Positions 45,167 through 62,777 of a stretch of DNA of 64,000 bases are shown in pieces. The notes under the pieces were generated by a model, which saw only the letters and a program-made list of their open reading frames with translations, ran no database searches and had not been told where the DNA came from. Where the stretch lies: assembly GCA_007693455.1 (NCBI GenBank), contig REDP01000167.1, positions 16,799 through 80,798 on the forward strand, in the 5' to 3' direction. Numbering within the stretch: the stretch's first letter is position 1; every line of letters starts with the position of its first letter. The position numbers were made by a program, and so were the translations under genes. The DNA comes from Planctomycetota bacterium. Its GTDB lineage: Bacteria; Planctomycetota; UBA11346.

Positions 45167-47836
45167 ATGACCACGCAAGGCAGCCTGCTTTCGGATCGTC
45201 AATTGTTAATGCGCTCACTCTTGTTTGTGGTGCGTCGCTACGCCCATCCAGGCTTACTGCGACGCTTACGCCGTATGCTGCGATTAGCCTTCCGTCGTCG
45301 TGATGGCGATTCCACCGCACAAGAAGAATTGGAGCAGATACTTGATGGCCTGGATGACCGTCTTTTAGAGGAGGTCATGCGGGCGCTGCAAATCCTTCTC
45401 GACTTGGCATCGGTGATCGAAGACCGCCAGCGTGTGCGCGTGCTTCGACAACGGCAAATGACAGGTGGCGGCGGGGAGACATTACAGGATGCGGTAGAGC
45501 GTTTGCAGCGGGATGGCCTTGATGGAGCTACTATTTCCAGTCTCCTGGCCCGCATTCGCGTTGAGCCAGTGTTTACTGCTCACCCCACCGAAGCAAAGCG
45601 CCGTACGGTTCGCGAAGCTCTCAGTCGATTGCGAGGCGATCTCGCACAATTGGACCGAAGCGACCTGTTGACCCAGGAAGAAGACGATTTGCGTCTTCGT
45701 ATTCGCCAAGATCTCGCCTGCTTATGGGAAACTGACACATTACATCCTAAGCGTCCGACACCGCACCAAGAAGTTCGCCGCAGTTTGCATTTATTAGATG
45801 CTTTATGGACTTCAGTGCCCCAATTACTGCGGCGTATCGAAGCCATTGGCGGCCATGCAGTGGGGAATATGCTTCGATTTGGTACCTGGATTGGCGGTGA
45901 CCGTGACGGCAATCCTTATGTTACTGCCGAGGTCACGCAGGGGGCCTTGTTATCCTTGCGTAATGCTGTGCTGGAGCGGCATATAAAAGAATGTCGCCGT
46001 GCCGCTTCCTTATTGAGCATGTCCCGGCGACTGCATCCCATGGGTGCGGCCTTAGAACGCGCCGTACTGGAGGCCGAAGAGCGCTGGGGCGATCGTCTCC
46101 TTGAAGCCCTCAAAGAAAAGCATCCCGATGAGACCTATCGCCGTTGGCTAACGGTGATTCGTATGCGCTTACAAGCGAGTATCTGTGCCAGCATGGCTGA
46201 CCATCCCGATCCAGCAGCCTATACCCATGCCAATGAATTGGCTCAAGATTTACTATTAATTAGCGATAGTTTACGTGCCAACGGACATCGTGATTTAGCT
46301 GACAGCCTGCTCGCATCCTGGCAGTACCGTTTGCAAGTCTTTGGCTTTCATGGTGCTCGCCTGGATCTTCGCGAGGATTCTCGGGTGGTCCTGGAAACGG
46401 TTGCTGCTTGCTGCCGTGCCTCGGGCTTCTGTGACAATATTGAGGCGCTTGATGATGATGCCCTGCGCGATGTGCTCTGCGGTGAACTCCCCCCAACCAT
46501 TGCTGATGGTGCAATAGATGGTGTGGCTGGAGACTTGTTGACCGTCTTCCGCTTGCGTCAACGTGCCGCCAGCCGTTTTGGTGGTGAATGTTTGGGCTGC
46601 TGTATTGTGAGCATGACCCATCGCGCTGAAGACATTCTCGCCTTTGCCTTTCTTGAACGCTACGCCGCGGCATGTGAAGGAGTACCGCATCAAGCCTCCC
46701 CCATGGTTCCCCTGTTTGAAACTATTGATGATCTCCAGCGAGCTTCAGAGATCCTTGATCGCCTCTTGGTGCAGGAGCGTTACCGCGAACACCTCAAGCA
46801 ATCGGGTGGTGATCAAGTGTGTATGGTGGGCTATTCAGATAGCACCAAAGATGGAGGCTACCTCACTGCAAACTGGGCGTTATTTAGTGGGCAAGAGGCA
46901 CTAGCGGCTTGTGCTGCGCGCCACAGTGTTCCCTTAACGGTATTCCATGGACGCGGTGGTGCCCTGGGGCGGGGCGGTGGGCCTGCTGCACGCGGCATTT
47001 TATCCCTCCCCAGTGGTGCGGTTCAGGGGCGCTTACGCCTCACTGAACAGGGGGAAGTGCTCGCCGAGCGCTACGATGATCCCGCCATTGCCGCCCGTCA
47101 TCTGGAGCAGTTGATATGGGGTACGCTGCTGGTAACAGCATCTGATCATCAGCGGCCCCAGCAAGAATGGCGGGACATTATGGAGACGGTGAGTGCCGAG
47201 GCGTATGGGTGCTGGCGCGAATTGGTTGACGATCCCTACTTCATGCACTGGTTTGCTGAGTGCACTCCCATTAGTATTATTGAGAATTTGGCCATTGGTT
47301 CGCGTCCAGCGCGACGTCGGGAACGACGAAGTCTCGCTGATTTACGAGCGATTCCCTTTACCTTTGCCTGGACCCAATCGCGGCAGATGCTCACCGCCTT
47401 TTATGGCTTGGGGCAAGCCTTGTCACAGCAGGTTGAAAAGCATCTTCCCTTGCTTCAAGAAATGTATGGGCAGTGGCCATTCTTCCGCGCAGTCATTGAT
47501 AATGCTGAACTCGCTTTAGCGAAATGTGACATGCAATTGGGCGATGATTACGCTCGTTTGGCTCGGGATGCCGCAGCGGGGCAGCAATTGGCGGCACGAG
47601 TGCGCCACGAACACGCCCAGGCAGTCGCTGCAGTGTTGGCGATTAAGCAGGTGCCACAATTATTGCATGAAACTCCATGGCTCGCGGAAAGCATTGCCGC
47701 CCGTTCACCCTTTATCGACATTCTAAACCTCGCTCAGATGCGGCTGATGCAGCGCGCCGCACAGCAGGATGCCCCCATGCCCTTACTGCGGTTGTCGGTG
47801 CAAAGTATTGCCGCCGGAATGCGGACAACGGGGTGA
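45167..47836 (+). CDS. ppc: Phosphoenolpyruvate carboxylase
   Basis: VFTAHPTE, GYSDSTKDGG, FHGRGGALGRGGGP, C-terminal MRTTG. ATG 45167 after GGGAGA gives about 889 aa. The listed start 44672 runs through MITE copy G. Confidence 0.95.
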   Translation: MTTQGSLLSDRQLLMRSLLFVVRRYAHPGLLRRLRRMLRLAFRRRDGDSTAQEELEQILDGLDDRLLEEVMRALQILLDLASVIEDRQRVRVLRQRQMTGGGGETLQDAVERLQRDGLDGATISSLLARIRVEPVFTAHPTEAKRRTVREALSRLRGDLAQLDRSDLLTQEEDDLRLRIRQDLACLWETDTLHPKRPTPHQEVRRSLHLLDALWTSVPQLLRRIEAIGGHAVGNMLRFGTWIGGDRDGNPYVTAEVTQGALLSLRNAVLERHIKECRRAASLLSMSRRLHPMGAALERAVLEAEERWGDRLLEALKEKHPDETYRRWLTVIRMRLQASICASMADHPDPAAYTHANELAQDLLLISDSLRANGHRDLADSLLASWQYRLQVFGFHGARLDLREDSRVVLETVAACCRASGFCDNIEALDDDALRDVLCGELPPTIADGAIDGVAGDLLTVFRLRQRAASRFGGECLGCCIVSMTHRAEDILAFAFLERYAAACEGVPHQASPMVPLFETIDDLQRASEILDRLLVQERYREHLKQSGGDQVCMVGYSDSTKDGGYLTANWALFSGQEALAACAARHSVPLTVFHGRGGALGRGGGPAARGILSLPSGAVQGRLRLTEQGEVLAERYDDPAIAARHLEQLIWGTLLVTASDHQRPQQEWRDIMETVSAEAYGCWRELVDDPYFMHWFAECTPISIIENLAIGSRPARRRERRSLADLRAIPFTFAWTQSRQMLTAFYGLGQALSQQVEKHLPLLQEMYGQWPFFRAVIDNAELALAKCDMQLGDDYARLARDAAAGQQLAARVRHEHAQAVAAVLAIKQVPQLLHETPWLAESIAARSPFIDILNLAQMRLMQRAAQQDAPMPLLRLSVQSIAAGMRTTG

Positions 47837-50118
47837 AGGTGTTTCCTGCTCCGCAGCCAACCGCCTATGGTTGGCATTTGCGGTGTTTATTGCGCGCCAT
47901 TGACGAGCATGCGGGGCATCTGCTGAGTCCTCGCGAGCGCTTATTGATAGCCGCTCAGGAAGTTGTGCCGCTTGACACCTTGGATCACTTGGCGCGACTG
48001 GTATCCCGTCGTCACGTGGATACCTGGATAGAGGGTATTCTTGGTGATGACGCTGTCCTATTGCAACGTATGGGATGGTGCGTGGGAGATGCCACTGGTC
48101 GTATTCGTGCTACGACCCATGCGCGACGACTGTGGTCTCTGGCGCAGGCGTTGGCGGATCCAATCACGGGAGCTGATGCCAGTCGAGCCGTTACCTGTGG
48201 GCTTGATGGGCGAGCGCTTGCGGACACTCCCTGGGCACGCTGTATTGCTGGTATACATCCAGGCTGTGCAACCATTCCCTGGGCCAAGCGAACTGATCTT
48301 GATGAGTGGATACATGCACGTCAGGAGCGCAGTCTCCCCATAGACGAATCGGCGTGGATGCGCGCATTGTCGCATGTCGCAGGTGTGACCGAGCAGGCGA
48401 CACCACTGCTTGGTTATCAGTGTCATGCGAGCTATCAGTGGGCTCGTCGTCTGCAGGAATGTACCGAGCATCTTCCCTATGACCCCCGACGCTACAGTGC
48501 CGCGATTCGCGCCCTTCGTACCGCCCCTGCAGCCCCATCATTGGCTCGTTGGCAGGCTGATAGTTTGTACCGTATCAATACGCTGCCGGGTTGGCGTCGA
48601 CACATTGCCTCGCAGGTTGCAGCCTGGGGAATTTGGCGCAGTGGCGAACGCCAGCGATGGCATTTGCGCGCCATCGGCCAGCGCCGTGCGCAAGCCCAGC
48701 CGGATGTTCCCGTGCGGTATCTTGACGCATGGATTGACCATGATGCCGCAGGTATGGTCGTAGCCGATGGTGAACGGGTAGAAATGCATGCCCTACGGCA
48801 ACTACGCCATGAGGGTTGGCAGGGCATCCACGCCGAAGGCGGATTCTGGCTTGGTTTAACTGCGCAATTAGCCCATGAGGTCCTTCTGGCCCCCGTAGCG
48901 GGAGTATGGGTGGCACCTTGGCAATCCTTACCCCTCGATTGGGGACGCTGGGGATTTAGTGCGCGTCGCCGTGGGCGTATTGATGATCTTATGCGCCAAC
49001 TCATGCACGATGCATCGGGTTTATGGCTGCGTGCGCATCAAGCCACCGCCAGTCAGCAGTATCCAGGCTGGCCCAGCTTTCCTGATCCCACGGCTGCCCA
49101 GAAGGTTATGGAAAGTATTCCACCCCTCATTCTCGCCCGCATTGTGCGGCGGATTTTAGATAATCCCCGTGAAGCATCCGGGCTTCCCGATCTTTTATGC
49201 TGGCGCGGTGATGCTGTGGCCTTGTGGGAGGTTAAGAGTCCAGGCGATGCCCTTTCCGACCAGCAGCGCAGTTGGCTTTCATGGTGTAGTCAAGAGGGCT
49301 TGGCGGCAGGGGTGATTCGGGTGCGTGCCCGCTCCCATCAACAAATGAGTTTGCTCCAGCAGGTGCAAACACCACCACCGTCGGCATCACCATCGCCCAA
49401 AGCGACTGCCCCAGCCAGGCGACGCACCCGCACCCGCCGCAGGCACGCCCGCTTTCCCCAGTTACACATCCTTGATCACCGGGGTCGACAATGGTCGGTC
49501 GTAGCCCAGGCACTGGTGCCAGGGTGTCCAGATCTACGCTGGTCCCAGCAAGCCCACGCGCCCGTGCAGGCATGGAGTGGGAGCCTCGGCCTTGGTGCTA
49601 TGGACGGCTGGCAGCGACCCGTAGAACAGGTGCAGATGCTGTCGGTGAGTGCCCTGCGCTGGGATGGTATTCAGGACTATGCACCGCGAAGGTGGATTCC
49701 GCTTCCTCAATCCATGGCCTTGCCCCTGCTTATCAGTCACGAAGCCGATCCAGAAGGGGGGTTACACATGGTGGCCACGGTTCTGTGGCGCCAAGCTGGA
49801 TGGTTGGTAGAGGCGGATGCCTGTCATAATGAGCCCGTCGTAGTACCGGCCGAAAGTCTGCGATACTTCGGTGAGAGCGAGTGTGCTGATTGGACGGCCC
49901 ACCCCAATGCGCCACCACCCAGGCCATGGGTTCAGGCCGAAGTGTGGGGATGCCGAGACGAGTTGCGACAGCAACTCGACTTAGTGCAGGGCTACCCCCA
50001 CGCCCTCACCCATGGAGAAGAGCACATCCATATCTGCGTGGCGACCGGCAGTGCGGTGCTATGGACTTGTGATCACCATCGCATTCTTCAGGCCGAGCTG
50101 CCGTGGCACCAAGAGTAG
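47833..50118 (+). CDS. FAN1-like VRR-NUC nuclease with a Trp/His-rich C-terminal extension of about 260 aa and unknown fold
   Basis: VRR-NUC core GLPDLLCWRGDAVALWEVKSPGDALSDQQRSWLSW. The N-terminal region resembles bacterial FAN1 helical/SAP-like modules. GTG 47833 overlaps the ppc stop (GTGA); GTG 47839 is an alternative. Confidence 0.75.
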   Translation: MKVFPAPQPTAYGWHLRCLLRAIDEHAGHLLSPRERLLIAAQEVVPLDTLDHLARLVSRRHVDTWIEGILGDDAVLLQRMGWCVGDATGRIRATTHARRLWSLAQALADPITGADASRAVTCGLDGRALADTPWARCIAGIHPGCATIPWAKRTDLDEWIHARQERSLPIDESAWMRALSHVAGVTEQATPLLGYQCHASYQWARRLQECTEHLPYDPRRYSAAIRALRTAPAAPSLARWQADSLYRINTLPGWRRHIASQVAAWGIWRSGERQRWHLRAIGQRRAQAQPDVPVRYLDAWIDHDAAGMVVADGERVEMHALRQLRHEGWQGIHAEGGFWLGLTAQLAHEVLLAPVAGVWVAPWQSLPLDWGRWGFSARRRGRIDDLMRQLMHDASGLWLRAHQATASQQYPGWPSFPDPTAAQKVMESIPPLILARIVRRILDNPREASGLPDLLCWRGDAVALWEVKSPGDALSDQQRSWLSWCSQEGLAAGVIRVRARSHQQMSLLQQVQTPPPSASPSPKATAPARRRTRTRRRHARFPQLHILDHRGRQWSVVAQALVPGCPDLRWSQQAHAPVQAWSGSLGLGAMDGWQRPVEQVQMLSVSALRWDGIQDYAPRRWIPLPQSMALPLLISHEADPEGGLHMVATVLWRQAGWLVEADACHNEPVVVPAESLRYFGESECADWTAHPNAPPPRPWVQAEVWGCRDELRQQLDLVQGYPHALTHGEEHIHICVATGSAVLWTCDHHRILQAELPWHQE

Positions 50119-52065: not shown

Positions 52066-54831
52066 TCATTGCATGGGCAATGGTTCCACGCTGAGCTCTT
52101 GCGGCTGCACAAAGCGCGCCCACAGGTGCTGACCATGGCGGTCGACAAAACTTATGGCGCCCTGATCTCCACAGGCAGTGAAGGATACTTCAGACACTGG
52201 GCCCAATTGTTCCAGGCTATAATAACGCCAGTCACGTCGCAGGCAGAGGCAGTGGGCATAGCCATCCACCCCGCGATAGACGACGTAGTGTCGGCCAAGC
52301 ACATAGCCGCCGTTGGGTGGTGCACTGGCTGCTGGGGCGTTTCCTGCCGCAAGTGTGAGGTCGTGGTGACGCCATTGCTGCCCCTCGTAGATGAACTCAT
52401 GAATATGGCCGTCTTGTCCAAGATAGAGAATGTGCTCATGGTCAGCTGGAGCATAGCCAACGGGATCACTTACCGCAGGAGGGGCCTGCAGGCGCTCGCT
52501 TAATGGCGCATGATACCATATGCCATGAAGTTCCAGCAGTTCATGAATGCTGCCTTGGTGGTCGCGCCAAGCAATATGTCGGGAGTTTTCCAGGGCCCAA
52601 TGCCAGGCACAAGCTGGCCCGACTGCTGCTGGTGGATGCCCCAGGTGACGGTGCATATTCATCACCTCTGTAGCATCATCGTCCAAGGAGCGCAGAAACA
52701 CTTCACCATTGGGATCCGTTAGGACAAGGAATAGGGGCGTATTTCCTGAAGCACGACTGATCACCGGCGTACCAAGCACTGGACCGACATCATGGGTGGG
52801 GCCATCAATGCGACCATTTTTATCCAATGGCGCATAAAAACCGCATCCTGCTTGGGTATTCCAGGCAATCCAACCATGATCTCCTCGGCTAATAATGAGG
52901 GGATCAGTGGCGAGATCTTGAGGATGGGGGAAGTCTTTATTGCGACCAATTTTTACCCAGCGATCTCCAACAGTACGAGCTGCCTTGAGACGATTTTTTC
53001 CATCACGCCAAGCGCTAAACCACATTCCAGGCTTACGCGGAGCCAGCGTTCCTGCAATATCCTCGTATGGCGCCCCATCACCAGCAGTGATGACAGCGGT
53101 AATGCGCTGCAGCTTTTCGTGAAGGGCATCGGTATCAGGGGCTTCTTGCCCTGATGATGGATCTTGGTGTGGAGCAGTGTGTGGAGCAGTGTGTGGGCGA
53201 GTGGTTGCAATCTGTCGCTGGAGCTGCTCAATACGTTGTTGGAGTTGCTGAATCTCTGGTTCGCGATCGACCGTGGCAGCAGCGGGGGCGCGAGAAATTT
53301 GCGCCTCTAATTCAATAATCCGCTGCTTTTCTGTTCGTTGTTCGGCGGCAGCCTCGTCACGTTCTGCTTCTAGGCTATATTTCTCCTGTTTGACCTTTTG
53401 CATATCTGCTCGTAAGGCATCGCGTTCCTGGGTAAGCTGCTCAATCCGATCATCGTTTTGTGAGCCCGCGGCAGCGAGAGCTAAATCAAGGTCCTTGCGA
53501 TATTGGGCAATTTGCCTCCGTAGGCTGGCAATGGTTCCTTTGCTAATTTGCACGTCCTCGCGAGCCCGGTCGCGTTCGGTAAGGGCCTCCTGCAGGGCAC
53601 GTTGATCCACCTGCATCGCTTCGGCATCATCGGGAGACCGCTGCAGGCGCTCCTGGAGATTGCCAATGGTGGTCTCATGCTCGGTAATCGTACGATGAGA
53701 CTGCAAGAGTTGCTGCTCTACATCACGATTGGCTGCGCGCAGATCGGCGAGTTCCGCCTGCAGTTCGGCGAGTTCATGGCCGGAGTGCTGGGTAGCTGCA
53801 GGGGCACCGCCTGACAAATGGGCGTGGGCAAGCTGTTGCTGCAGATCCTCAATTTGCTGCTGCATGTCATCCATCAGATCCTCATGCACGCGAATCCAAA
53901 TCATCGCCTCAAGTCGTTCGCGGTCTGCAGCTAAAGCCCCTTCTGCGCCTTCGCTCACCACGGGTACCAGTTCAACTAATTGCTCATGCATGGAGCCAAG
54001 GTCGCTTCCCAGGTGCTCGGCAATTTCTGCCGCGGCTCGCTGATCGGCAAAAAAGCGGTCTTCTTGATGCTCGGCGCCCATATTTTCGCCATCATCATCC
54101 ACGTCTTTAGGCTGGTGGCGCCCATTATAGAAGCGTTGGTCGATGGCAAATAAGGCCGTAACCACTTCCGCACTGGCAACCAACTGCCGCCCCAAATTGC
54201 GGCGTAGCTGATTATGTTCTTGCGATACGTTCGCGGCCTTTTCTTTTGCTGCTGCCAACTCTTGGCGCAGGGCTTGCATGGCTTCACTGCCACCGCTTAA
54301 TTCCTTGCTGGCAAGATCGGCATCAAGGTCTGCAATTTGCTCCTGAAGATGGTTATTTTCAATGTGTGAATCTTCAAGTGACTGTTCGAGTTCACTGCAA
54401 CGGCGTTGGCTTGCCTGCAGTTGCCCCGCAAGTTCGCTGATTTTTTGCGCATCTGCGGCGCGGTTATTTGCTTCCGCCTGGCGTTCAGACATAATCGAAG
54501 ACAGCTCTTGCCGCGTATTGGCCAAGAGGCGATCGGCCTCTTCACTGTCAATGGTGGTGCTGCTGCTAATAACCCTGCGCAGCGCTTCTTGAATCCAGCG
54601 CTTGAGATTGCGCTCGCTTAAGGTTTTGAGATTTTTGGTTTTTCCGCGCTTGGCCAACTCCTCAAGAGAAGTGCGTTGGGTCATCGATGCCAACTGGTCA
54701 TCTATCTCTTGGGTGGATCGCGCCGCTTCAACACGGCGCTCTTCAACCACACGCTGCTGGGAGGTGGGTTGTGAGTCCGTATCAAGAGGAGCCTCGTCCT
54801 CATCAAAGCGTAATTCATCACTCTCGGGCAT
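52066..54831 (-). CDS. Giant coiled-coil protein CC1: conserved N-terminal module, about 500 aa of coiled coil, C-terminal beta-propeller-like repeat domain
   Basis: AAGGAG lies 5 nt upstream of ATG 54831. Long heptad-rich Q/E/L/A/R sequence. The C-terminal 320 aa carry six similar blade-like motifs. The N-terminus is paralogous to CC2. Confidence 0.8.
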   Translation of the reverse strand: MPESDELRFDEDEAPLDTDSQPTSQQRVVEERRVEAARSTQEIDDQLASMTQRTSLEELAKRGKTKNLKTLSERNLKRWIQEALRRVISSSTTIDSEEADRLLANTRQELSSIMSERQAEANNRAADAQKISELAGQLQASQRRCSELEQSLEDSHIENNHLQEQIADLDADLASKELSGGSEAMQALRQELAAAKEKAANVSQEHNQLRRNLGRQLVASAEVVTALFAIDQRFYNGRHQPKDVDDDGENMGAEHQEDRFFADQRAAAEIAEHLGSDLGSMHEQLVELVPVVSEGAEGALAADRERLEAMIWIRVHEDLMDDMQQQIEDLQQQLAHAHLSGGAPAATQHSGHELAELQAELADLRAANRDVEQQLLQSHRTITEHETTIGNLQERLQRSPDDAEAMQVDQRALQEALTERDRAREDVQISKGTIASLRRQIAQYRKDLDLALAAAGSQNDDRIEQLTQERDALRADMQKVKQEKYSLEAERDEAAAEQRTEKQRIIELEAQISRAPAAATVDREPEIQQLQQRIEQLQRQIATTRPHTAPHTAPHQDPSSGQEAPDTDALHEKLQRITAVITAGDGAPYEDIAGTLAPRKPGMWFSAWRDGKNRLKAARTVGDRWVKIGRNKDFPHPQDLATDPLIISRGDHGWIAWNTQAGCGFYAPLDKNGRIDGPTHDVGPVLGTPVISRASGNTPLFLVLTDPNGEVFLRSLDDDATEVMNMHRHLGHPPAAVGPACAWHWALENSRHIAWRDHQGSIHELLELHGIWYHAPLSERLQAPPAVSDPVGYAPADHEHILYLGQDGHIHEFIYEGQQWRHHDLTLAAGNAPAASAPPNGGYVLGRHYVVYRGVDGYAHCLCLRRDWRYYSLEQLGPVSEVSFTACGDQGAISFVDRHGQHLWARFVQPQELSVEPLPMQ
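53167..53202. repeat. 12-nt tandem repeat (2 perfect units plus 1 imperfect) inside CC1, encoding PHTAPHTAPH on the minus strand
   Basis: GTGTGGAGCAGT at 53167-53178 and at 53179-53190, then GTGTGGGCGAGT. Confidence 0.85.
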
Positions 54832-55023
54832 GGTTGCTCCTTTTTGCCGTAGCCTGGCAGGGGGTCTATAGATTACCATGCATACTCAGTATCTTATGCC
54901 CAGGTGCAACCCGAGATTGTGTAAAGACTGAGACAACGAGTTACTCACCCTTGTGCTTGTCCGTGAGGGGAATGGCCATGGCTTTTTATGACTCCTGTGC
55001 ACCCTCTACGTCAGCCGAGGTCA

Positions 55024-55842
55024 ATGACGAGCATGCGCGTAGATTTCCATATCCATACGAATTTGAGTGATGGAGCCTTAGACCCCGAGGCGGTCCTGGA
55101 GTTGATCGCCGAGCGCAAGCTCAAGGCCTGGGCGATAACCGATCACGATCTCACCGAAGCTTCACAACGCTACGAGGATATACCTGGCGCGGTGTCGGGC
55201 TGCGAGGTAACCACCTGGGCGGAGGGTCGCGAAGTGCATGTGGTAGCACTTGGCACCCGACTTAATGATACTCCGTGGCAAGAGGTGTTGTGTGCCATCC
55301 GTCATGCGCGTGAGGAGTACCTTGTTCGTTTATGTCAGTGGCTACGCCAACAACATGGAATCGACGTGCCTGATGGGGCGGGTCGCAAGCAGAGCAGTCG
55401 AATAAGCTCACGGGCCCATTTAGCGGCCTATCTACATCAGCACCATGTGGTTCGCAGCGTTGGTGAAGCCTTCCAACGTTATCTTGGTGATGCCCATATA
55501 CGCCACCTTGCGCCGCCAAATTACCCACCCTTAGAACAAGCAGTGGCCCACATTCAAGCAGCAGGGGGGGTGGCAATACTCGCCCATCCTGCCCATTATC
55601 GGGATTATGGTATGGTTGAACGACTCTTACATAGTTCACCACTGGATGGCCTGGAGGTGCGCCATCCTGGCTGCGATAGCCAGTGGCGTAGCTTTCTTGA
55701 ACACCAGGCTCAAAGCCGCGGCTTATTGATGAGCTGTGGTTCGGATTTTCACTACCCAGGGCCACGCCGCATTGGCGAACATCGTCTTGATGGCGTCCGT
55801 TTAGCCCCGCTCCTTGAGCGTCTCAACGTCTCTCATCGTTAG
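55024..55842 (+). CDS. PHP-domain metal-dependent phosphoesterase (TrpH/YciV-like)
   Basis: VDFHIHTNLSDG, ITDHD and later His/Asp ligands (AHPAHY, GSDFH). ATG 55024 or 55033. Confidence 0.88.
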   Translation: MTSMRVDFHIHTNLSDGALDPEAVLELIAERKLKAWAITDHDLTEASQRYEDIPGAVSGCEVTTWAEGREVHVVALGTRLNDTPWQEVLCAIRHAREEYLVRLCQWLRQQHGIDVPDGAGRKQSSRISSRAHLAAYLHQHHVVRSVGEAFQRYLGDAHIRHLAPPNYPPLEQAVAHIQAAGGVAILAHPAHYRDYGMVERLLHSSPLDGLEVRHPGCDSQWRSFLEHQAQSRGLLMSCGSDFHYPGPRRIGEHRLDGVRLAPLLERLNVSHR

Positions 55843-55931
55843 AGCCTTGGGTCCGTATACCATTACTTTTCGTTAACCCATCATGTATTCATAACAATCA
55901 ATTGGGTTGCAGGCACGTCCATCACCTTGAT

Positions 55932-55952
55932 GCTGAAAGCTGAAAGCTGAAA
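55932..55952. repeat. Heptamer GCTGAAA x3 in the PHP/rlmN convergent intergenic region
   Basis: Read directly from the sequence. Enclosed by the 6-bp inverted repeat CACCTT (55923-55928) / AAGGTG (55951-55956), followed by TTTTA. Confidence 0.8.
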
Positions 55953-55958
55953 GGTGTT

Positions 55959-56984
55959 TTATACTGCTGTTTCGGCCTTTTTACGCAATACCAGTTGTCC
56001 ACAGGCCGCATCAATATCAGCACCGCGTTGCCCGCGTACGGTGGCGTGTCCTCCTGCCTCTCGCACCAGGGCGGTAAAACGCTCCACCTGATCCCAAGAG
56101 GGACGCTGATGGGGCGTTTGCAAAACCGGATTATAGGGGATCAGATTAATATGCGCCCCGTATCGTCGGGCCAGGCGACCTAGGTCATGGGCATGGTGAT
56201 CGCGCATATTGGCGTCTGCCAACAGTACGTATTCAAAGGTCATGCGCCGTCCAACGCGCTGGGAATAGGCGTCGAGAGCCTGTAAAAGGGCGGCGATATT
56301 CCAACGGCGATTTAACGGCACCAGCCGTGAGCGACTTTCGTCATCAGGCGCATGTAAGCTGAGTGCCAAGGTGACTTGCGGCTCGTCGTCAGCCAGTTGT
56401 CGAATCTTTTCCGCAACTCCCGAAGTAGATACGGTAATGCGTCGACGACTCAAGCCCAGTCCTTGGGGATGACCGAGCAAGCGTATTGCCGCTAATACAT
56501 TGCTGTAGTTAAAGAGCGGTTCACCTGATCCCATAAAGACGACATGGGTTACCGGCCGCCGCTGATGGTGATACAGTACCTGATAGACAATCTCACCAAC
56601 CTGTAAATCACGCTCTACCCCAGTCAGTCCCGAAGCACAGAAGGTGCATCCCACCGCACAGCCAACCTGTGATGACACGCAGATGGTATGACGCGTACGG
56701 GTGGGAATAGAGACGCTCTCCACGCGTTTGCCATCGGCTAGGGAAAAGAGCGTCTTTACTGTGCCATCACTGCTTTCCTGATTGGTGACCACCTCAGCAG
56801 GGCAGAGGCGGTGGGCTTGATCAAGGGATGCACGCAGTTCCTTGGGAAGTGGACTGATATCGCCAAAGCACTGCGGTACATGATGCTGCAACATGGTGAA
56901 AATCTGTTCACCACGAAAGGCGGGAAGCCCGCGTTTGGTCGCCCACAGGCGCAGCTGCTGACTATCACTGCCATAAAAGTCCAT
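55959..56984 (-). CDS. rlmN: 23S rRNA/tRNA adenine-C2 methyltransferase, radical SAM
   Basis: CVSSQVGCAVGCTFCASG radical-SAM cluster motif, C-terminal DIDAACGQL with the second catalytic Cys. 341 aa. Confidence 0.95.
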   Translation of the reverse strand: MDFYGSDSQQLRLWATKRGLPAFRGEQIFTMLQHHVPQCFGDISPLPKELRASLDQAHRLCPAEVVTNQESSDGTVKTLFSLADGKRVESVSIPTRTRHTICVSSQVGCAVGCTFCASGLTGVERDLQVGEIVYQVLYHHQRRPVTHVVFMGSGEPLFNYSNVLAAIRLLGHPQGLGLSRRRITVSTSGVAEKIRQLADDEPQVTLALSLHAPDDESRSRLVPLNRRWNIAALLQALDAYSQRVGRRMTFEYVLLADANMRDHHAHDLGRLARRYGAHINLIPYNPVLQTPHQRPSWDQVERFTALVREAGGHATVRGQRGADIDAACGQLVLRKKAETAV

Positions 56985-57213
56985 ATGCGTATGCTGGGGA
57001 CTGGTGGCGTATTACCAGCCGCATCCTGATCGCAACAATACTTTCGCTTGCCATCACTGGCAATGGGTTCAAAGCTGTCGCGGGCAATCCTCTGTGTCAC
57101 ATATCGACAAAGCCCCGGCAGACTGGCGCTAGGATGTTGGCAGAGAGCACCATCATTTGCAGCAAAGCACTTGTGTGATCCTTTGGTGATCCGAGAGAAG
57201 GAGTTGATTCCTC

Positions 57214-60200
57214 ATGGCACAGCAACGTACCAGCCATACCAAACGCCAACATGTTGAATACCAAGAAGACATCCCTGATATTGATCAGGGCTTAAACGAC
57301 CTCACGAAGGAAACAACGGTCCGCGACCTCATGCGCCGCGGGCAGCATAAAAAGCTGCGAACCATTCGCGAGCGCGATCTCAAGGAATGGATCGCTACGG
57401 CTCTGCGTCGGGTCATGGTGACCCATGAGGACACCTTCACCGACGAGCAAAAGCAAGAAATGGTGGCGAAGGTGCAGGAGGAAATGCAGCAGCGCATTAA
57501 AGCCCTGCAGGAACAAGCCAAAGCCGCCGAAGCTGGTGCCCAGGAGTGGCGCAGTCAATATCAGCAAGCAGTGAGCGAAGCGGGCGAAAACCAGCAATTA
57601 CACGATGTACTGGCCAATCTCCAAGCCAAATATGAGAACGCCCAAGCCGAACGTGAAGATGCGGTGGCCCGCCTTCTCGACATGGAAGATGATTTCAACG
57701 AAAATAAATCTATGTTGGCGACCACCATAGCGGAAAAAGAACGTCTCCAGACCACCAACCGCGAACTCTTTATGCGCTCGAGTCAAGTGATCGAGCCAAT
57801 TCTAGCCATTGATAACGAATACTATCAGGGCAGCCATCAGGAAGATACGCCTGGTGACAACGAAGATGATAGCTCTTTCTTCCGTGACTTTGAAGTGAGT
57901 ACGCATGTCTTGGAAAGCCTGCAAGGGGATCTGGCCAAGGGTACCGCTTTGACTCCCGCTGGGGCAGCAACCACAGACGGAGAAATGGCCGAACCTACTC
58001 CCGTTCAATTCCAAGAAGAGCATCTCCTCACCCTCTATGAAGCCAGCGACCAGGCTTTGGCGAAACTCAGTGGAATGCTGGATGTGGAAACCACCGAAGA
58101 GCTTGAAGAGCACATTGGTGATGGCCAAACGCATATAGAGAATGAACCAATCGCCAAGTTGCATCACAAAATTATCATGCTGGGTAAGGGCATTGGCCTG
58201 CAGCGTGATCGCCTGCAGCACCTGGAAGAAGAAAATGCCTCCTTACGTAGTCAGCAGGAAGCAGCCTCTGGCAATGAGACATCACAAGCCGCAGCCCGAC
58301 ACATTGCCGAGACCTTAGCCGCTGCCGCGATTCCTTTTCACCGTGAGACTGACGCCCAGACAGTGGACGCCGAACTACAACAAAGGGCTGCCGCACTGGA
58401 GGAAACCCTTGCCGAAGATGGTGAAGACGCAGCCGCCCTACAAGAACGCGCCGACGCTGTTATTGCAACGATAGTAGCAGAGCGTCAGCGCATGGAATCA
58501 AGCCTGCAAGATCAGCTCCGTCGCGCCGCCGCGGCGGAAGACGCCTTGCGTAAACTTGCGGGGGCAGCAGCAGCAGCAGTATGTGCCGAGGGCGAAGAAG
58601 ACGACTCCGCCCTGGGTACCGCCACGGAAAACCTGCGTAAAGACCTCGATACCCCTGCCGATCTTGTCCCTGGCGGCAATGAACAATTGCTTGCCGACAT
58701 TAGTGTTGATGGCGCACAAGTTATTGCTCAACTGCGTGAAGAACGGGATGCCGCCCGAGGACAAGCGGCTGCGGCGCGTGCCAGTGAGCGCGTCCTTGCC
58801 CAACGCCTCTTAGAGCTTGCTGTCGACTCCGATGATGATGCTGTCCTCGGGGTTGCCTCGCAGTTACGCCAAGCCATGGACAATGATCCTGAAGCCTCGG
58901 TTGCCGACCACATCGCGGCCACTTCTCAGGCCCTGGCCGAACATGGCACAGGTGTAGCTGAATCGCAGGGAGCCAGTGCTGCCGAACTGGAAGAAGTACA
59001 GCAACGCCTTGCCGCCGCTGAACAGGCCGCTGAAGAGCATCAAGGCACGGTGAAGGAATTGCGTGAGCGCAACGAATCACTGCAAGAACAATTAGATCAA
59101 CGCGACAGTGAGTTAGCCGAATTGGAAACGCGTCTGGCCGATGATGAGGATCAACTGGCTGCTGTGCGCGAAGAACTCGCGGCCGCCAAGGACCACGTCA
59201 CTGCCTTACAGGCAGGGCAAGAGGGTGTTGCGCAAGCACTCTCACAGGCCGCCAAGGAACATCACCAGGCCCTGGCCGACCTGGAGCAAGACGGCGAAGA
59301 GGACGATGCTTTGGCACATGCCGCCGAAGAGGTGCATGAGCTTGTCTCCGCCCCTGGCGAACACGATACGGACCAAGTCCTCAATGCCACCCGTGGGGTG
59401 ATCTCCCGCCTTCGCGTAGCCAATGATGCCTTGGCGCAACGACTGCGCCGTAAAGAGCAAGAGTTGGGTGAAGTGCGTCGTAGCACGGAGAGTAAAGCCG
59501 AAAGTTTGGATGAACTTAAAAAAGCTTTGGCTCATGCCGAAGCAGAGCGCGAACAAAGCAAGCACGATGCCACAGCCCTGCAAGAAGAGGTGGCAACCCT
59601 CAATCAGCGCATCGATGCGGCCGCCGAAGAAGCGTTCGAAAAGGATGAGGCGTTGGATCAATTACGTGCGGCGGCAAAAGATGCCGAAGAGCGTTTGGCC
59701 GAGCAGAAACACACGGTAGAGACGCTCAATCAACGTATAGAAGCCGCTGCCGAAGATCTGCTGAGCAAGGAAGAAGAAATCGAACAACTGCGCGCAGCCA
59801 ACCAAGAAGCTGCCGCACAAGCGGATGAATTGGCGCAACTGCAAAAACAGCGGGACGAGTTAGCTGATTCATTGCAATCTGCCGAAGAGGCTCGTGAAAA
59901 GGCGCAATCTGATCTTGCGCAGACGCAAGCAGCGCTCTCTGAGAAAGAGGCAGAGCTTGAGCAACTGCGCACCTCCATCAAAGACGCCGAAGAGCGCCTT
60001 GCCGAGCATGAACACACCTCGCAGACGCTCAATCAACGCATTGACGCTGCCGCCGAAGATCTGCTGAGCAAAGAAGAAGAAATCGAACAATTACGCGCGG
60101 CCAACCAAGAAGCTGCCGCACAGGCTGATGAATTGGCACAGCTCAAGGAACAACTCAGTGACAAAGAATCGGCGCTGAATACCACGCAAGAGGAACGAGA

Positions 60201-61638
60201 CAGCGCACGCACCGATTTAGATAAGGCCCAAGAGGCACTTACTGCCAAGGAAACTGAGTGCGTAGAACATGAACAAACGATCGCCAAACTACAACCACTT
60301 GAGCAGCGTTGTGAGGAGTTGCAGCAGCAAGTAGCTGAAGCGCAAGAGAATAAAAGCGCCCAAGACGAAGAAAATGAAGCCCTGCGCATGCGCGTGGATG
60401 CAATGGAGGGTGAGTGTGCTGAATTGCGCAACGAGCGTGACCAACTCCGGCAGTCGGTTAGCGAGCTTGAAGAACAACTCAAAGGGGCTCAAGCCAACGG
60501 TCAGCAGGTCGAAGAACTCCAGCACAGCTTAGGAGATTCACAAGAGCGTTTGCAGCAACTTGAGGCAGCGTTGGCTGAACGGCAAACGGCCTTAGAGCAT
60601 AGCCAACAAGAACTCAGTGAGCGTGACTCTACTTTGGCGCAAGCCCAAGAGAACTTGGCGGAAAAAGAGGCTGCCTTGGCCCAGGCCCAGAGCCAAGCGC
60701 ATGCCGCTGAGGAGGATAAACAGTCACTCCAAGAAAAACTGCAGGCCCGCGATCAAGAATTGGCCGAGGTTGAGGGGCAGCTCAAAGAGCAAGAACAGCG
60801 TCTCAATGAACTCGAAGCGGTAAAAGCCGAATTGGCAGAAACCCAGCAAGAACGGGCTGCGGTTCAGGAACGCCTCCAGGAACTTGAGCAACTCCTTGCT
60901 GACCGTGATGAACACATTACGGGGAAAGAGGCAGAGTTGACTCAAGCCCATGAACGCGAGCAGCTGTTGAAGGATCAGCTGGAGGCTCTCCAGGCTGAAC
61001 TGGATCACCTGCGGCGCTCGCTGCGCAACGCTGAAGCACGCATTAGCGAGCTTGAAGCCCGGGAGCAGCAATTGGAAGCAGACTTTGAGAAGGACCTTGC
61101 TGATGTACGACAGCAACTCAATGATGAGGAAGCCGCTCACGCAGCCGTACGTCAACGCCTGGATTCCTACGAGGAAGATCATGTGGAAATTCTCGCAACC
61201 CTGCGTGGTCGCCTGAAGGATGCTGAATCGGCCCGTGGACGCCTGGAACAACAGATAGAGGAACAGGGCGCAGAGCTTGCCAGTGTGCGACAAAGTCAGG
61301 AATACGATGCCAATCGTCTGCAGCGTCTCGATGAGGAGCTCGCTGCCCTGCAATTAGAACGCGATGAACTTCGTCAACAGCTCAAAGCAGTCGAACAACA
61401 TCTCGAAGAAGAGCGCAATACACGGCAGGGCTGGGAAGCCCGCAAGGAGCGTTTGCAACAGGATCACCAAGAGCAGATCCAAGGATTGCGTGAACGCCTG
61501 CAGAAGGCTCGCGATGACCTCCATGCCCTGCAATCAGAGACCCGTCATCTCCGCGAGGATAATGTCGGTTTACGCTCACGCCTTCGCACCCTTGAAGCCA
61601 ACGATGGAGATGATCAGAGCAACCCAGACATGAACTGA
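57214..61638 (+). CDS. Giant coiled-coil protein CC2 (1474 aa), N-terminal module paralogous to CC1, internally repetitive
   Basis: GAAGGAG upstream of ATG 57214. Nearly the whole length is E/Q/A/L/R-rich heptad-like sequence. Shares two conserved N-terminal blocks with CC1. Confidence 0.85.
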   Translation: MAQQRTSHTKRQHVEYQEDIPDIDQGLNDLTKETTVRDLMRRGQHKKLRTIRERDLKEWIATALRRVMVTHEDTFTDEQKQEMVAKVQEEMQQRIKALQEQAKAAEAGAQEWRSQYQQAVSEAGENQQLHDVLANLQAKYENAQAEREDAVARLLDMEDDFNENKSMLATTIAEKERLQTTNRELFMRSSQVIEPILAIDNEYYQGSHQEDTPGDNEDDSSFFRDFEVSTHVLESLQGDLAKGTALTPAGAATTDGEMAEPTPVQFQEEHLLTLYEASDQALAKLSGMLDVETTEELEEHIGDGQTHIENEPIAKLHHKIIMLGKGIGLQRDRLQHLEEENASLRSQQEAASGNETSQAAARHIAETLAAAAIPFHRETDAQTVDAELQQRAAALEETLAEDGEDAAALQERADAVIATIVAERQRMESSLQDQLRRAAAAEDALRKLAGAAAAAVCAEGEEDDSALGTATENLRKDLDTPADLVPGGNEQLLADISVDGAQVIAQLREERDAARGQAAAARASERVLAQRLLELAVDSDDDAVLGVASQLRQAMDNDPEASVADHIAATSQALAEHGTGVAESQGASAAELEEVQQRLAAAEQAAEEHQGTVKELRERNESLQEQLDQRDSELAELETRLADDEDQLAAVREELAAAKDHVTALQAGQEGVAQALSQAAKEHHQALADLEQDGEEDDALAHAAEEVHELVSAPGEHDTDQVLNATRGVISRLRVANDALAQRLRRKEQELGEVRRSTESKAESLDELKKALAHAEAEREQSKHDATALQEEVATLNQRIDAAAEEAFEKDEALDQLRAAAKDAEERLAEQKHTVETLNQRIEAAAEDLLSKEEEIEQLRAANQEAAAQADELAQLQKQRDELADSLQSAEEAREKAQSDLAQTQAALSEKEAELEQLRTSIKDAEERLAEHEHTSQTLNQRIDAAAEDLLSKEEEIEQLRAANQEAAAQADELAQLKEQLSDKESALNTTQEERDSARTDLDKAQEALTAKETECVEHEQTIAKLQPLEQRCEELQQQVAEAQENKSAQDEENEALRMRVDAMEGECAELRNERDQLRQSVSELEEQLKGAQANGQQVEELQHSLGDSQERLQQLEAALAERQTALEHSQQELSERDSTLAQAQENLAEKEAALAQAQSQAHAAEEDKQSLQEKLQARDQELAEVEGQLKEQEQRLNELEAVKAELAETQQERAAVQERLQELEQLLADRDEHITGKEAELTQAHEREQLLKDQLEALQAELDHLRRSLRNAEARISELEAREQQLEADFEKDLADVRQQLNDEEAAHAAVRQRLDSYEEDHVEILATLRGRLKDAESARGRLEQQIEEQGAELASVRQSQEYDANRLQRLDEELAALQLERDELRQQLKAVEQHLEEERNTRQGWEARKERLQQDHQEQIQGLRERLQKARDDLHALQSETRHLREDNVGLRSRLRTLEANDGDDQSNPDMN
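59677..60150 (+). repeat. Intragenic tandem duplication with an exact 303-nt (101-codon) period in CC2
   Basis: 59677-59846 aligns without gaps to 59980-60149 (KDAEERLAE..TLNQRI.AAAEDLLSKEEEIEQLRAANQEAAAQADELAQL). Most differences are at third codon positions by eye. Confidence 0.9.
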
Positions 61639-61736
61639 TCTTCGACGAGTCCGTGTGCGCATTTTTAGTTGCCAGCACCTCCTCATTGGTGGACCTGTGT
61701 CACATCACGGCATACTCATTCGCAAGGAGGGATGCA

Positions 61737-62777
61737 ATGCGATTCAATGTGAATGCAGGGGTGCGCTCATGGGTTTGTGCTTTTACTCTGGTGCTCATCT
61801 GTGCAGGCAATGCCCTCGCCGAGTCCCAGGCGCAATCGGAAGTTGCCCTTGATGATGTGGTGGAGCGTGGTCTTGCCGCCCTCGTACGTGTGCAAGCCAA
61901 TGATGGCAGTTTTGGTGATAGCGCCGGCATCACCGCACTTGGCGGCATGGCATTGTTAGCAGGGGGGCATACGCCTACCAGTGGCCGCTATCGGGACGCT
62001 AGTGCTGCGGCTTTGCGCTACGTATTGCAAGCCCAAGATGAGATGACGGGCTACCTGGGCCATGGCATGGGAAACATGTATTCGCATGGTTTTGCAACGT
62101 TGTATCTGGCAGAATGCTATGGCATGTCCCCCGATCCACGTGTGCGCCGTGCGCTCGCCGCCGCCCTGGAGCTCACCTTCCGTTCGCAAAATGATGAGGG
62201 AGGATGGCGCTATCAACCGGCGCCTGTGGATGCTGATATATCCGTTACGATTACCCAAATAATGGCCATCCGTGCGGCCTACAATTTGGGCATTGGTGGA
62301 GAACAAGCGCAACGGGTAAGTGCTCGTGCCATATCTTATGTGCGCTCCCTGGCCACCCCGCAAGGAACCTTTCTCTACCGCCATGGCTCGGGGAGCTGGG
62401 GCACCCAGGGAACCCAAGGCGTACCACGCGCAGCGGCAGGAGCCATGAGCCTTATTGGAGCAGGGATTAACGATCTTGATGATCCCGTACTGGGGCCAGC
62501 AATGAACTTCCTGCGCACCCACGTTGGCGATCATTTGCGTGAAGAGGGAAACTGGTTCTGGTATGGGCAGTATTATGCCGCTCAGGCCATGTTCCACAGT
62601 CCTGATCGCGATGATTGGCGTATGTATTGGGATATGGTTGTCCCAACACTGGCGGCATTTCAAAGCGAGGATGGCATCTGGAATCGCCCCCGCGACCATG
62701 GCTCGGTGTATGGTACCGCCATGGCCCTTATTATCCTACAAATACCCAATAATTATTTACCCATTTTTCAGCGCTGA
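61737..62777 (+). CDS. Secreted prenyltransferase/squalene-cyclase-repeat (alpha/alpha-toroid) protein
   Basis: AAGGAGG lies 6 nt upstream of ATG 61737. Signal peptide MRFNVNAGVRSWVCAFTLVLICAGNALA. Repeated Q-x-x-D/E-G-x-W/F motifs (QANDGSFG, QNDEGGWRY, QSEDGIWN). Confidence 0.8.
   Translation: MRFNVNAGVRSWVCAFTLVLICAGNALAESQAQSEVALDDVVERGLAALVRVQANDGSFGDSAGITALGGMALLAGGHTPTSGRYRDASAAALRYVLQAQDEMTGYLGHGMGNMYSHGFATLYLAECYGMSPDPRVRRALAAALELTFRSQNDEGGWRYQPAPVDADISVTITQIMAIRAAYNLGIGGEQAQRVSARAISYVRSLATPQGTFLYRHGSGSWGTQGTQGVPRAAAGAMSLIGAGINDLDDPVLGPAMNFLRTHVGDHLREEGNWFWYGQYYAAQAMFHSPDRDDWRMYWDMVVPTLAAFQSEDGIWNRPRDHGSVYGTAMALIILQIPNNYLPIFQR

Follow-up and report, generated by a model that had tools for sequence, protein, structure and literature searches.

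Two giant coiled-coil proteins of a Planctomycetota bacterium share an N-terminal head domain with small proteins encoded upstream of volactin-type actin genes

We analysed a 64-kb stretch of chromosome from a Planctomycetota bacterium (contig REDP01000167.1 of assembly GCA_007693455.1; hereafter the window), in which an initial annotation had described two genes for giant coiled-coil proteins, here named CC1 and CC2. Four genes lie in the region: CC1 (52066..54831, minus strand, 921 amino acids (aa)), a PHP-domain gene (54988-55842, plus strand; Pfam PHP, 30.5 bits), a radical-SAM RlmN-like gene (55959-56984, minus strand; Pfam Radical_SAM) and CC2 (57214..61638, plus strand, 1474 aa), so that CC1 and CC2 are 2.4 kb apart. 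Both large open reading frames (ORFs) exist as described, and each start is preceded by AAGGAG. The CC1 ORF extends over 52066..54879 on the minus strand, with its first ATG at 54879. We prefer the start at 54831, because a Shine-Dalgarno AAGGAG lies 6 nucleotides (nt) upstream of it and the orthologue P0004 begins at the equivalent residue. The orthologues used for CC1 were P0004-P0007 and ORFs in the loci L003 and L005; CC2 was compared with 53 CC2-like representatives. From its N-terminus, CC1 consists of a head, a hairpin region with a second conserved block, a coiled-coil stalk, a Pro-rich linker and a seven-bladed β-propeller. CC1 and the PHP-domain gene form one divergent pair and the rlmN-like gene and CC2 another; CC1 and CC2 are separate transcription units. 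The PHP-domain gene and the RlmN-like gene are taken as context, the former being outside the head family, and among the ORFs of the window the head is carried by CC1 and CC2 only.

The N-termini of CC1 and CC2 are related. BLASTP gives a single collinear N-terminal alignment of 264 columns with 27% identity (E=1e-14 with compositional adjustment), which corresponds to a shared module of ~250 aa. Smith-Waterman scores were also compared with those of 1000 shuffles, a coil-versus-coil comparison from the same two proteins serving as control. The whole module reaches a z-score of 20.9, with 18.7 in block 1 and 11.3 in block 2, compared to 4.0 in the control. Both blocks are also conserved among relatives in other genomes. 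Because the z-scores exceed the control and the blocks recur elsewhere, the similarity is not due to chance or composition. The two shared blocks of the initial annotation are thus real, and the compositional bias that it had named as a possible source of the resemblance does not account for it. The C-terminal parts of the two proteins are unrelated. The paralogy that had been proposed holds for the shared module; since CC1 and CC2 belong to different subfamilies and are 33% identical in block 1, it must be old. On sequence comparison, CC1 and CC2 are ancient paralogues from separately conserved subfamilies, with no recent duplication between them.

The block-1 head occupies 54457..54711 in CC1 (minus strand, aa ~41-125) and 57268..57528 in CC2 (plus strand, aa ~19-105); the shorter block 1 noted earlier corresponds to 54568-54666 and 57319-57417, respectively. 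The head aligns without gaps across the three clades described below. Its block-1 consensus is D-I-x-x-x-L-x-x-L-x-x-x-T-T-x-x-E-L-x-R-x-G-x-x-K-K-L-K-V-I-S-E-R-x-L-x-x-W-I, followed by a helix that enters the coil. In these very acidic proteins, no other 30-aa window is as basic: the net charge of the block-1 window and of the whole protein is +8 and -54 in CC1, +7 and -173 in CC2, and +9 and -232 in the CC2-like protein P0046. Several block-1 columns are 56-96% K/R. Block 2 carries invariant D, H and F/Y residues. In CC1, the hairpin region with block 2 spans 54007..54456 (minus strand), where AIDQRFYNGRHQ, an acidic stretch and FFAD lie at 54043-54165. The acidic stretch had been placed behind block 2; it is present, but it sits inside block 2, between HQ and FF.

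We modelled CC2 residues 1-272 with AlphaFold2 (AF2) from a 34-sequence alignment. The model has an overall predicted local distance difference test score (pLDDT) of 78 and a predicted template-modelling score (pTM) of 0.51, with pLDDT 85-95 over the long helices and block 2. Helices are predicted at residues 21-30 and 36-41, followed by an unstructured basic segment (42-52) and a helix at 53-71. Two long helices (77-122 and 127-204) are then split by a conserved AGEN turn, and the second ends in block 2. The predicted antiparallel hairpin of CC2 covers 57442..57954 (plus strand), with block 2 at 57787-57888 and a further helix at residues 224-246. Such a hairpin would bring block 2 back to the head, and the CC1 hairpin is assumed from this CC2 model. 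A Foldseek search with the N-module model found nothing below E=1, only generic hairpins (Vipp1/PspA, LSD1 tower, SerRS arm). The best PDB profile match of block 1 was the WHEP helix-turn-helix of HisRS (E=0.016), which we judged to be a similarity of helical composition.

In CC1, the hairpin region is followed by a coiled-coil stalk (53332..53994, minus strand; aa ~280-500) with heptad periodicity, which is strong over aa ~280-450, and with sub-threshold SMC-arm matches. Its ~220 aa would extend ~33 nm if the coiled coil is continuous. A Pro-rich linker containing TRPHTAPHTAPHQDP (53062..53319, minus strand) is recognised from the composition profile and from low pLDDT at the start of the propeller model. 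The C-terminal domain (52069..53061, minus strand) is predicted by AF2 and Foldseek to be a seven-bladed β-propeller with a PLL/PHL-lectin-like fold, in agreement with the propeller-like end that had been suggested for this protein. The AF2 model (pLDDT 88, pTM 0.87) has 28 strands in seven groups of four. Against the PDB, the 22 best Foldseek matches are all Photorhabdus PLL/PHL structures (PLL5, PLL2, PHL), with fungal fucose lectins next; the PLL/PHL matches reach E values down to 3e-11 and template-modelling scores of 0.68-0.72 at 9-12% identity. A profile of the propeller family matches the bacterial fucose-binding lectin 6htn (E=8e-4) over two blades, and the propeller has no Pfam match. 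The invariant propeller residues are concentrated in blades 4-6.

In CC2, an irregular, acidic and Ala-rich region (57961..58980, plus strand; aa ~250-589) with Gly/Pro breaks and weak 3.5-residue periodicity leads into a long heptad-periodic rod (58981..61593, plus strand; aa ~590-1460), which would measure ~129 nm as coiled coil. The rod, with strong 3.5-residue periodicity and nearly free of Pro and Gly, covers aa ~560/590-1460, or ~870-900 aa. The 1200 aa of uninterrupted coiled coil credited to CC2 in the initial annotation were an overstatement, as aa 200-560 are irregular and contain Gly and Pro. The best SMC/Rad50 arm match of CC2 scores 110 bits, compared to a cut-off of 567 bits. Inside the rod lies a direct duplication (59638..60152, plus strand) of two 212-nt copies, 303 nt apart and 78% identical. 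The duplicated unit is ~101 codons long, and a third partial copy is found at 59596-59672. The CC2 rod thus appears to lengthen by internal duplication, which fits the 1000-1950 aa range of its subfamily. Close to the C-terminus is a conserved motif, LREDNVGLRSRLRTLEA (61549..61599, plus strand; aa 1446-1462). This motif, (E/D)(E/N)x(V/I/A)GL(R/K)A(R/K)L(R/K)xL(T/S) or the GLRARLRRL type, is found in the last ~45 aa of 25 of the 29 long CC2-like representatives.

An exhaustive HMMER search with the N-module profile against 1.84 billion cluster representatives returned 115 representative clusters at E<=1e-3, 76 of them at E<=1e-10. The module match begins within the first ~120 residues in all but two clusters, and these two are coiled-coil noise; we therefore count ~113 clusters in the family. 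This search, which had been proposed as a check on the module, leads to Planctomycetota wherever the organism is named: all labels are Planctomycetota or Planctomycetes metagenome-assembled genomes (MAGs), and none is a named cultured species. The head domain family is thus apparently specific to Planctomycetota. In the source databases, the relatives are called 'hypothetical', 'coiled-coil domain-containing' or 'chromosome segregation ATPase', the last label being a coiled-coil artefact. Searched against Pfam, NCBIfam and PADLOC, CC1, CC2 and ten of their relatives matched nothing but the arms of coiled-coil proteins (SMC, Rad50, JetC, LmuB), always below threshold, and Pfam and NCBIfam gave no match to DivIVA, PopZ, bactofilin or KfrA at E<=0.1. 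The N module has no significant sequence match in the PDB, where profile matches are generic coils. The module, which the initial annotation had not recognised as SMC, DivIVA, PopZ or bactofilin, is therefore none of these. A search of plasmids with the block-1 head gave no match.

Word-indexed searches of 5.8 billion proteins recovered three fragmentary relatives only, and a word-indexed search with a block-1-only profile recovered no relative. The nearest public relatives of CC1 and CC2 are encoded on the frameshift-ridden long-read assemblies L001 and L002 (ENA ERZ28548099 / ERZ28548061), in which the CC1 orthologue appears as two parts of 265 and 642 aa and that of CC2 is broken into numerous fragments. 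These frameshifts explain why the word-indexed searches gave short fragments only. Taken together, the head, hairpin and block 2 constitute a new domain family that is not described in the libraries or literature searched; the architecture of a coil with a PLL-type propeller is likewise absent from them.

In a neighbour-joining tree of block 1 (~90 aa), the sequences fall into three clades: CC2-like, CC1-like and a clade of small proteins. Independent clade alignments compared by hhalign match each other with P=6e-19, 3e-19 and 2e-21 over 87-89 ungapped columns. The CC2-like clade has 53 representatives, which are 1000-1950 aa at full length, begin block 1 at residue ~5-20 and have a block 2 of the form GVLGLDxxYYGGRHQ..NP..(acidic)..FYHDFxVGAxVI. 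The CC1-like clade (36 representatives) has a 40-120 aa N-terminal extension, block 1, usually block 2, a coiled coil and a C-terminal β-rich domain; one subgroup (P0011, P0012, P0019 and the type in L005) is without block 2. The small clade (16 representatives, 200-400 aa) has block 1 and a short coil. We also considered co-evolution of the CC1 and CC2 heads within one genome and found no support for it: the distance to CC1-like heads is only slightly smaller for the CC2 of the window than for other CC2-like heads.

The small clade is encoded beside actin genes. Its downstream sequence is readable for four members (L031, L033, L012 and L032), and in three of these loci the small-clade gene (P0105, P0091 or P0096) lies 34-43 nt upstream of a Volactin gene. 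In L031:8001-9768, P0105 (8001-8684) is separated by a 43-nt gap from a Volactin gene (8728-9768). P0091 (8001-9197, in L033:8001-11635) is followed after 37 nt by two tandem Volactin paralogues, and P0096 (L012:224-1193) after 34 nt by the start of one Volactin gene. These small proteins of 227-398 aa come from Planctomycetota MAGs. Those downstream proteins that are complete score 274-289 bits with Pfam PF25216 Volactin (cut-off 35), and the planctomycete volactin-like proteins are 38% identical to haloarchaeal homologues over the full length. In a plasmid search, the volactin-like gene matched haloarchaeal replicons only. Volactin of Haloferax volcanii, an actin homologue, assembles in the cytoplasm into dynamic filaments that contact the membrane with their tips; no binding factors of volactin are known (PMC10869688). 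A volactin-family actin with a dedicated upstream partner in bacteria seems to be undescribed in the literature searched. Saltatorellin, the actin of Saltatorellota, was considered and set aside, as it is MamK-like and apparently of a different family (10.1101/817700).

The small-clade proteins end in a strongly conserved motif, LF...ESN(L/I)..V.V....G.GI..NLE(R/K)LKKL(K/R)GG. Three haloarchaeal replicons have, immediately upstream of their volactin homologue, a gene (L034:2809-3708, L035:1483-2406 and L036:1420-2328) for a conserved protein with four transmembrane segments. Its acidic cytoplasmic tail carries VD..V.GL(R/K)GL(R/K)GGE and terminates in GLLxxxRSLF. This protein may anchor the tips of volactin filaments in the membrane and supply a peptide that binds them. 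The fourth readable planctomycete locus encodes P0098 (301 aa, L032:8001-8906), a stand-alone N module with block 1, a hairpin and a block-2-like element. The P0098 gene lies 36 nt behind dnaX and directly before nrdR. In many bacteria, the slot behind dnaX usually holds ybaB, the gene of the nucleoid protein YbaB.

The gene order CC2-rlmN-PHP-CC1-L25-prs is repeated in the close relative L009 and partly in L002. The PHP-domain gene holds the equivalent position in both, and the RlmN-like gene beside the CC2 orthologue is also conserved in both. In the distant planctomycete GCA_016745075.1, 3 kb separates a CC1-like gene (P0058) from a CC2-like gene (P0046) on the same strand; the heads of P0058 and P0046 are only 41% and 36% identical to those of the CC1 and CC2 of the window. 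There (L006:3639-14671), Hpt, ABC-ATPase and FtsX-permease genes stand between the two on the opposite strand, and a Hpt-HATPase_c kinase gene is directly upstream of P0058. Chance is an unlikely explanation of the proximity of CC1 and CC2, because this proximity occurs in two distant lineages that differ in the genes between them. No CC2-like gene is within reach of the CC1-like genes in L001, L003, L005 and L011. The proximity is thus recurrent, not obligatory. An AI-2E family transporter gene stands beside the CC1-like gene in two divergent loci (L001:12853-14241 and L011:8834-9949). The CC2-like genes of the P0029 type are preceded directly, on the same strand, by a peroxiredoxin gene (AhpC-TSA/1-Cys Prx) in all 16 of 16 loci (L008/L027 and L015-L030). 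This is probably clade synteny and gives no functional hint.

CC1 and CC2 look like coiled-coil, non-enzymatic, cytoplasmic proteins, because neither has a Walker A motif, a transmembrane segment, a signal peptide or a lipobox, and their database matches are to coil arms only. We tentatively favour, with a little less than even confidence, the reading that both are cytoplasmic tethers or scaffolds docked by their common basic head to a shared partner. The head, a small basic helical unit of ~90 aa, would be a common docking or dimerisation module, and in the two large subfamilies the hairpin behind it would return block 2 toward the head. The head would put all family members on one cellular partner, which is probably polyanionic: DNA, an acidic membrane or a filament. 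From this anchor, CC2 would extend a rod of at least 130 nm ending in the conserved basic-leucine motif, and CC1 a stalk of ~30 nm bearing the lectin-like seven-bladed propeller. Both would act as scaffolds or tethers, not as enzymes. We infer that the two proteins form dimeric coiled coils docked through the head, and only infer a link of CC1 or CC2 to volactin. The basic patch is compatible with DNA (by a ParR-like logic), an actin-like filament or an acidic membrane as the partner. The partner is plausibly part of an actin-like cytoskeleton, because the small clade with the same head is encoded directly upstream of volactin-type genes. The proposal of the initial annotation that the two genes make up one dedicated structural or scaffolding system is plausible. 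It gains indirect support from the third clade, in which the same head is operonic with volactin-type genes, and the linkage of CC1 and CC2 recurs in a distant genome; the two genes are nevertheless separate transcription units, and most loci hold only one of them.

Several observations weigh against this reading of CC1 and CC2 as docked tethers or scaffolds. The CC1/CC2 pair is adjacent in only two of six independent CC1-like lineages, a CC1-like neighbour is absent from all 16 metagenome loci examined in one CC2-like subgroup, and CC1-like and CC2-like genes are otherwise surrounded by housekeeping genes that vary between loci. No volactin-like ORF is present in the window or in ~25 CC1-like or CC2-like loci. 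The head itself is modelled at a pLDDT of 61-78 only. The tail motif of the small clade weakly resembles the haloarchaeal tail (hhalign P=9e-4; hmmsearch E=3e-6 to 0.02, with three sequences), so that the tail, and not the shared head, may be the actin-binding element. If this match is real, the tail would be a volactin-binding peptide and the shared head the other, anchoring end of the adaptor. The C-terminal motif of CC2 was also compared with the small-clade tail, and the similarity is not significant (P=0.018). Finally, every member of the family comes from an uncultured organism, and hence there is no experimental handle on any of them.

Two rival proposals name the partner of the head more specifically. 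The head might bind DNA, the small clade being a ParR-like centromere-binding adaptor with an actin-binding tail and CC1 and CC2 being nucleoid-anchored tethers or organisers. We consider this unlikely, even though the conserved basic patch stands within very acidic proteins and small-clade genes are in an operon-like arrangement beside that of an actin homologue, their products having a conserved C-terminal tail of their own. In our reading of the model, the basic 'KLKVI' segment, helix, Ser/Thr loop and helix would be compatible with a dimer-formed ribbon-helix-helix, and P0098 is encoded directly behind dnaX, in the slot that ybaB has in many bacteria. However, the dnaX adjacency is seen at a single locus, the Pfam, NCBIfam and PDB profile searches found no ribbon-helix-helix, helix-turn-helix or KfrA-type family, and repeats or centromere-like arrays near small-clade genes were neither searched for nor seen. 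The head might instead bind volactin-type filaments. As giant proteins associated with actin, CC1 and CC2 would then serve as cross-linkers, rulers or cargo adaptors, and it would be the propeller or the C-terminal motif that makes contact with cargo or membrane. The head is indeed the sole element common to the volactin-adjacent small clade, CC1 and CC2. The LKKLKGG end of the small clade presumably recalls MinD-type amphipathic membrane-targeting helices, which would leave the head as the filament-binding end. Coiled-coil/actin-like networks are known in bacteria (PMC12748827). We nevertheless hold this proposal to be improbable, as the weak match of the small-clade tail to the haloarchaeal membrane-protein motif (P=9e-4) points to the tail, and no volactin gene lies near the CC1-like or CC2-like genes in the loci covered.

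Two other explanations were considered. The module could be a mere folding or oligomerisation cap for long coils, the three clades being functionally unrelated and CC1 and CC2, without any functional coupling, lying close together only because they arose by tandem duplication long ago. The variable gene contexts, the separate transcription units, the unrelated C-terminal parts and the non-adjacency of the pair in most lineages are all in keeping with such a cap. Against it stand the surface-type basic head residues, which are strongly conserved across clades only 20-35% identical, and the conservation of block 2 with its invariant D, H and F/Y. It is also unlikely (by a rough estimate, ~12 kb of several Mb) that the two genes came to be adjacent by chance in two distant lineages, each with its own intervening genes, and we regard the cap as a doubtful explanation. 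A surface location would make CC1 an exported, adhesin-like lectin on a coiled-coil stalk and CC2 a surface fibre. This is very improbable: the nearest propeller folds are indeed sugar-binding lectins (PLL/PHL, AAL, BP39L), with a weak fucose-lectin sequence match, but neither protein has a signal peptide, lipobox or transmembrane segment, the conserved domain stands at the extreme N-terminus, and no secretion genes are found nearby in the window. The invariant propeller residues, moreover, are in blades 4-6 only and do not mark seven repeated sugar sites. An identity as SMC or defence proteins is rejected, as CC1 and CC2 have no ATPase head.

Among known systems, the coiled-coil-rich proteins (CCRPs), including crescentin, Streptomyces FilP/Scy, Helicobacter Ccrp and cyanobacterial members, are the closest in architecture. 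Like CC1 and CC2, they are long heptad rods with a short non-coil head and tail, are cytoplasmic and are without a nucleotide-binding domain. Two CCRP genes are sometimes side by side and act together, which recalls the proximity of CC1 and CC2; an Anabaena CCRP pair forms heteropolymers (bioRxiv 10.1101/553073). The heptad rod with head and tail that characterises the crescentin/FilP/Scy class is found in the sequences of CC1 and CC2. CCRPs are, however, an architectural class and not a family, and they have no sequence homology to CC1 or CC2: neither protein showed homology to a named intermediate filament-like member in Pfam and NCBIfam above threshold or in PDB profiles. CCRPs also lack a propeller, which CC1 has, and the module of basic head, hairpin and block 2 is new. 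SMC, Rad50 and MukB share the coiled-coil composition, and the predicted hairpin recalls SMC arms, but CC1 and CC2 have no ABC ATPase head or Walker A motif and appear to lack a hinge. The NCBIfam SMC/Rad50 models cover coil arms only, at <=110 bits versus cut-offs of 567-1087, and of an SMC-type intramolecular coil only a short hairpin (CC2 aa 77-204) is predicted in the modelled N-terminal part. The Photorhabdus PLL/PHL lectins (PDB 8q83, 6rg2, 5mxg) have a propeller of the same size as that of CC1, with seven four-stranded blades, and the CC1 blade motif G-x-I-x-E ... W-Y resembles that of fucose-lectin blades. The CC1 propeller is, however, only 10-12% identical to these lectins in sequence, is fused to a ~590-aa coiled-coil protein and is conserved mainly in blades 4-6.

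The small clade (L031, L033 and L012), and not CC1 or CC2, resembles the ParR-type adaptors of ParMRC, AlfAB and MamJ/MamK, in that its members are likewise encoded beside an actin homologue and have two conserved ends joined by a coil. A coiled-coil/actin-like network of Desulfovibrio magnetosomes is a further comparison case (PMC12748827). The small clade differs from ParMRC in that the actin belongs to the volactin family, characterised in a haloarchaeon, and that the adaptor gene precedes the actin gene. The analysis revealed neither a DNA-binding fold nor a centromere, and no repeat search was made. Long coiled-coil scaffolds are already known in bacteria; the head module and the link of the small clade to volactin are new in the libraries and literature searched.

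Most Planctomycetota divide without FtsZ, and the cell biology of planctomycetes, with budding or FtsZ-independent division, a complex endomembrane and a condensed nucleoid, is molecularly obscure. To our knowledge, no phylum-specific cytoskeletal scaffold has been defined in planctomycetes. The head domain is the hallmark of giant coiled-coil proteins and, in a small relative, of the protein encoded in an operon with a volactin-type actin. It is a candidate localisation module, the propeller a candidate ligand binder and the C-terminal motifs candidate interaction peptides. The small-clade tail also offers a candidate volactin-binding motif, where the Haloferax study left the binding factors unknown (PMC10869688). 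A more far-reaching idea, to which we give low credence, is that some uncultured Planctomycetota have a volactin-type cytoskeleton whose adaptor and giant accessory proteins, CC1 and CC2, share one head. If so, CC1 and CC2 would link volactin-type filaments, or their anchoring site, to the envelope, nucleoid or cargo. They would then belong to the first actin-associated protein set for the volactin family in either domain of life, and the small-clade tail would be a conserved volactin-binding peptide that the haloarchaeal membrane partners also have.

The 64-kb window is otherwise ordinary chromosome, with nuo genes, dnaG, rpoD, carB, fusA and genes for PEP carboxylase, a VRR-NUC protein, prs and L25. 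Directly downstream of CC2 lies an ORF of 374 aa (window 61653-62777) with a hydrophobic N-terminal segment and without a Pfam match at E<=1e-4. Frameshifted copies of this ORF are found at the equivalent place behind the CC2 orthologue in L002. Its DGSFG, DEGGWRY and EDGIW repeats recall those of terpene cyclases or prenyltransferases. On the other side of CC1, the window encodes an 813-aa protein (47677-50118) with a central VRR-NUC nuclease domain (49.6 bits) and long flanks without an assigned domain. This ORF and the end of the PEP carboxylase ORF have 160 nt in common, and thus the true start of the VRR-NUC gene is probably later; the same gene order is found in L009.

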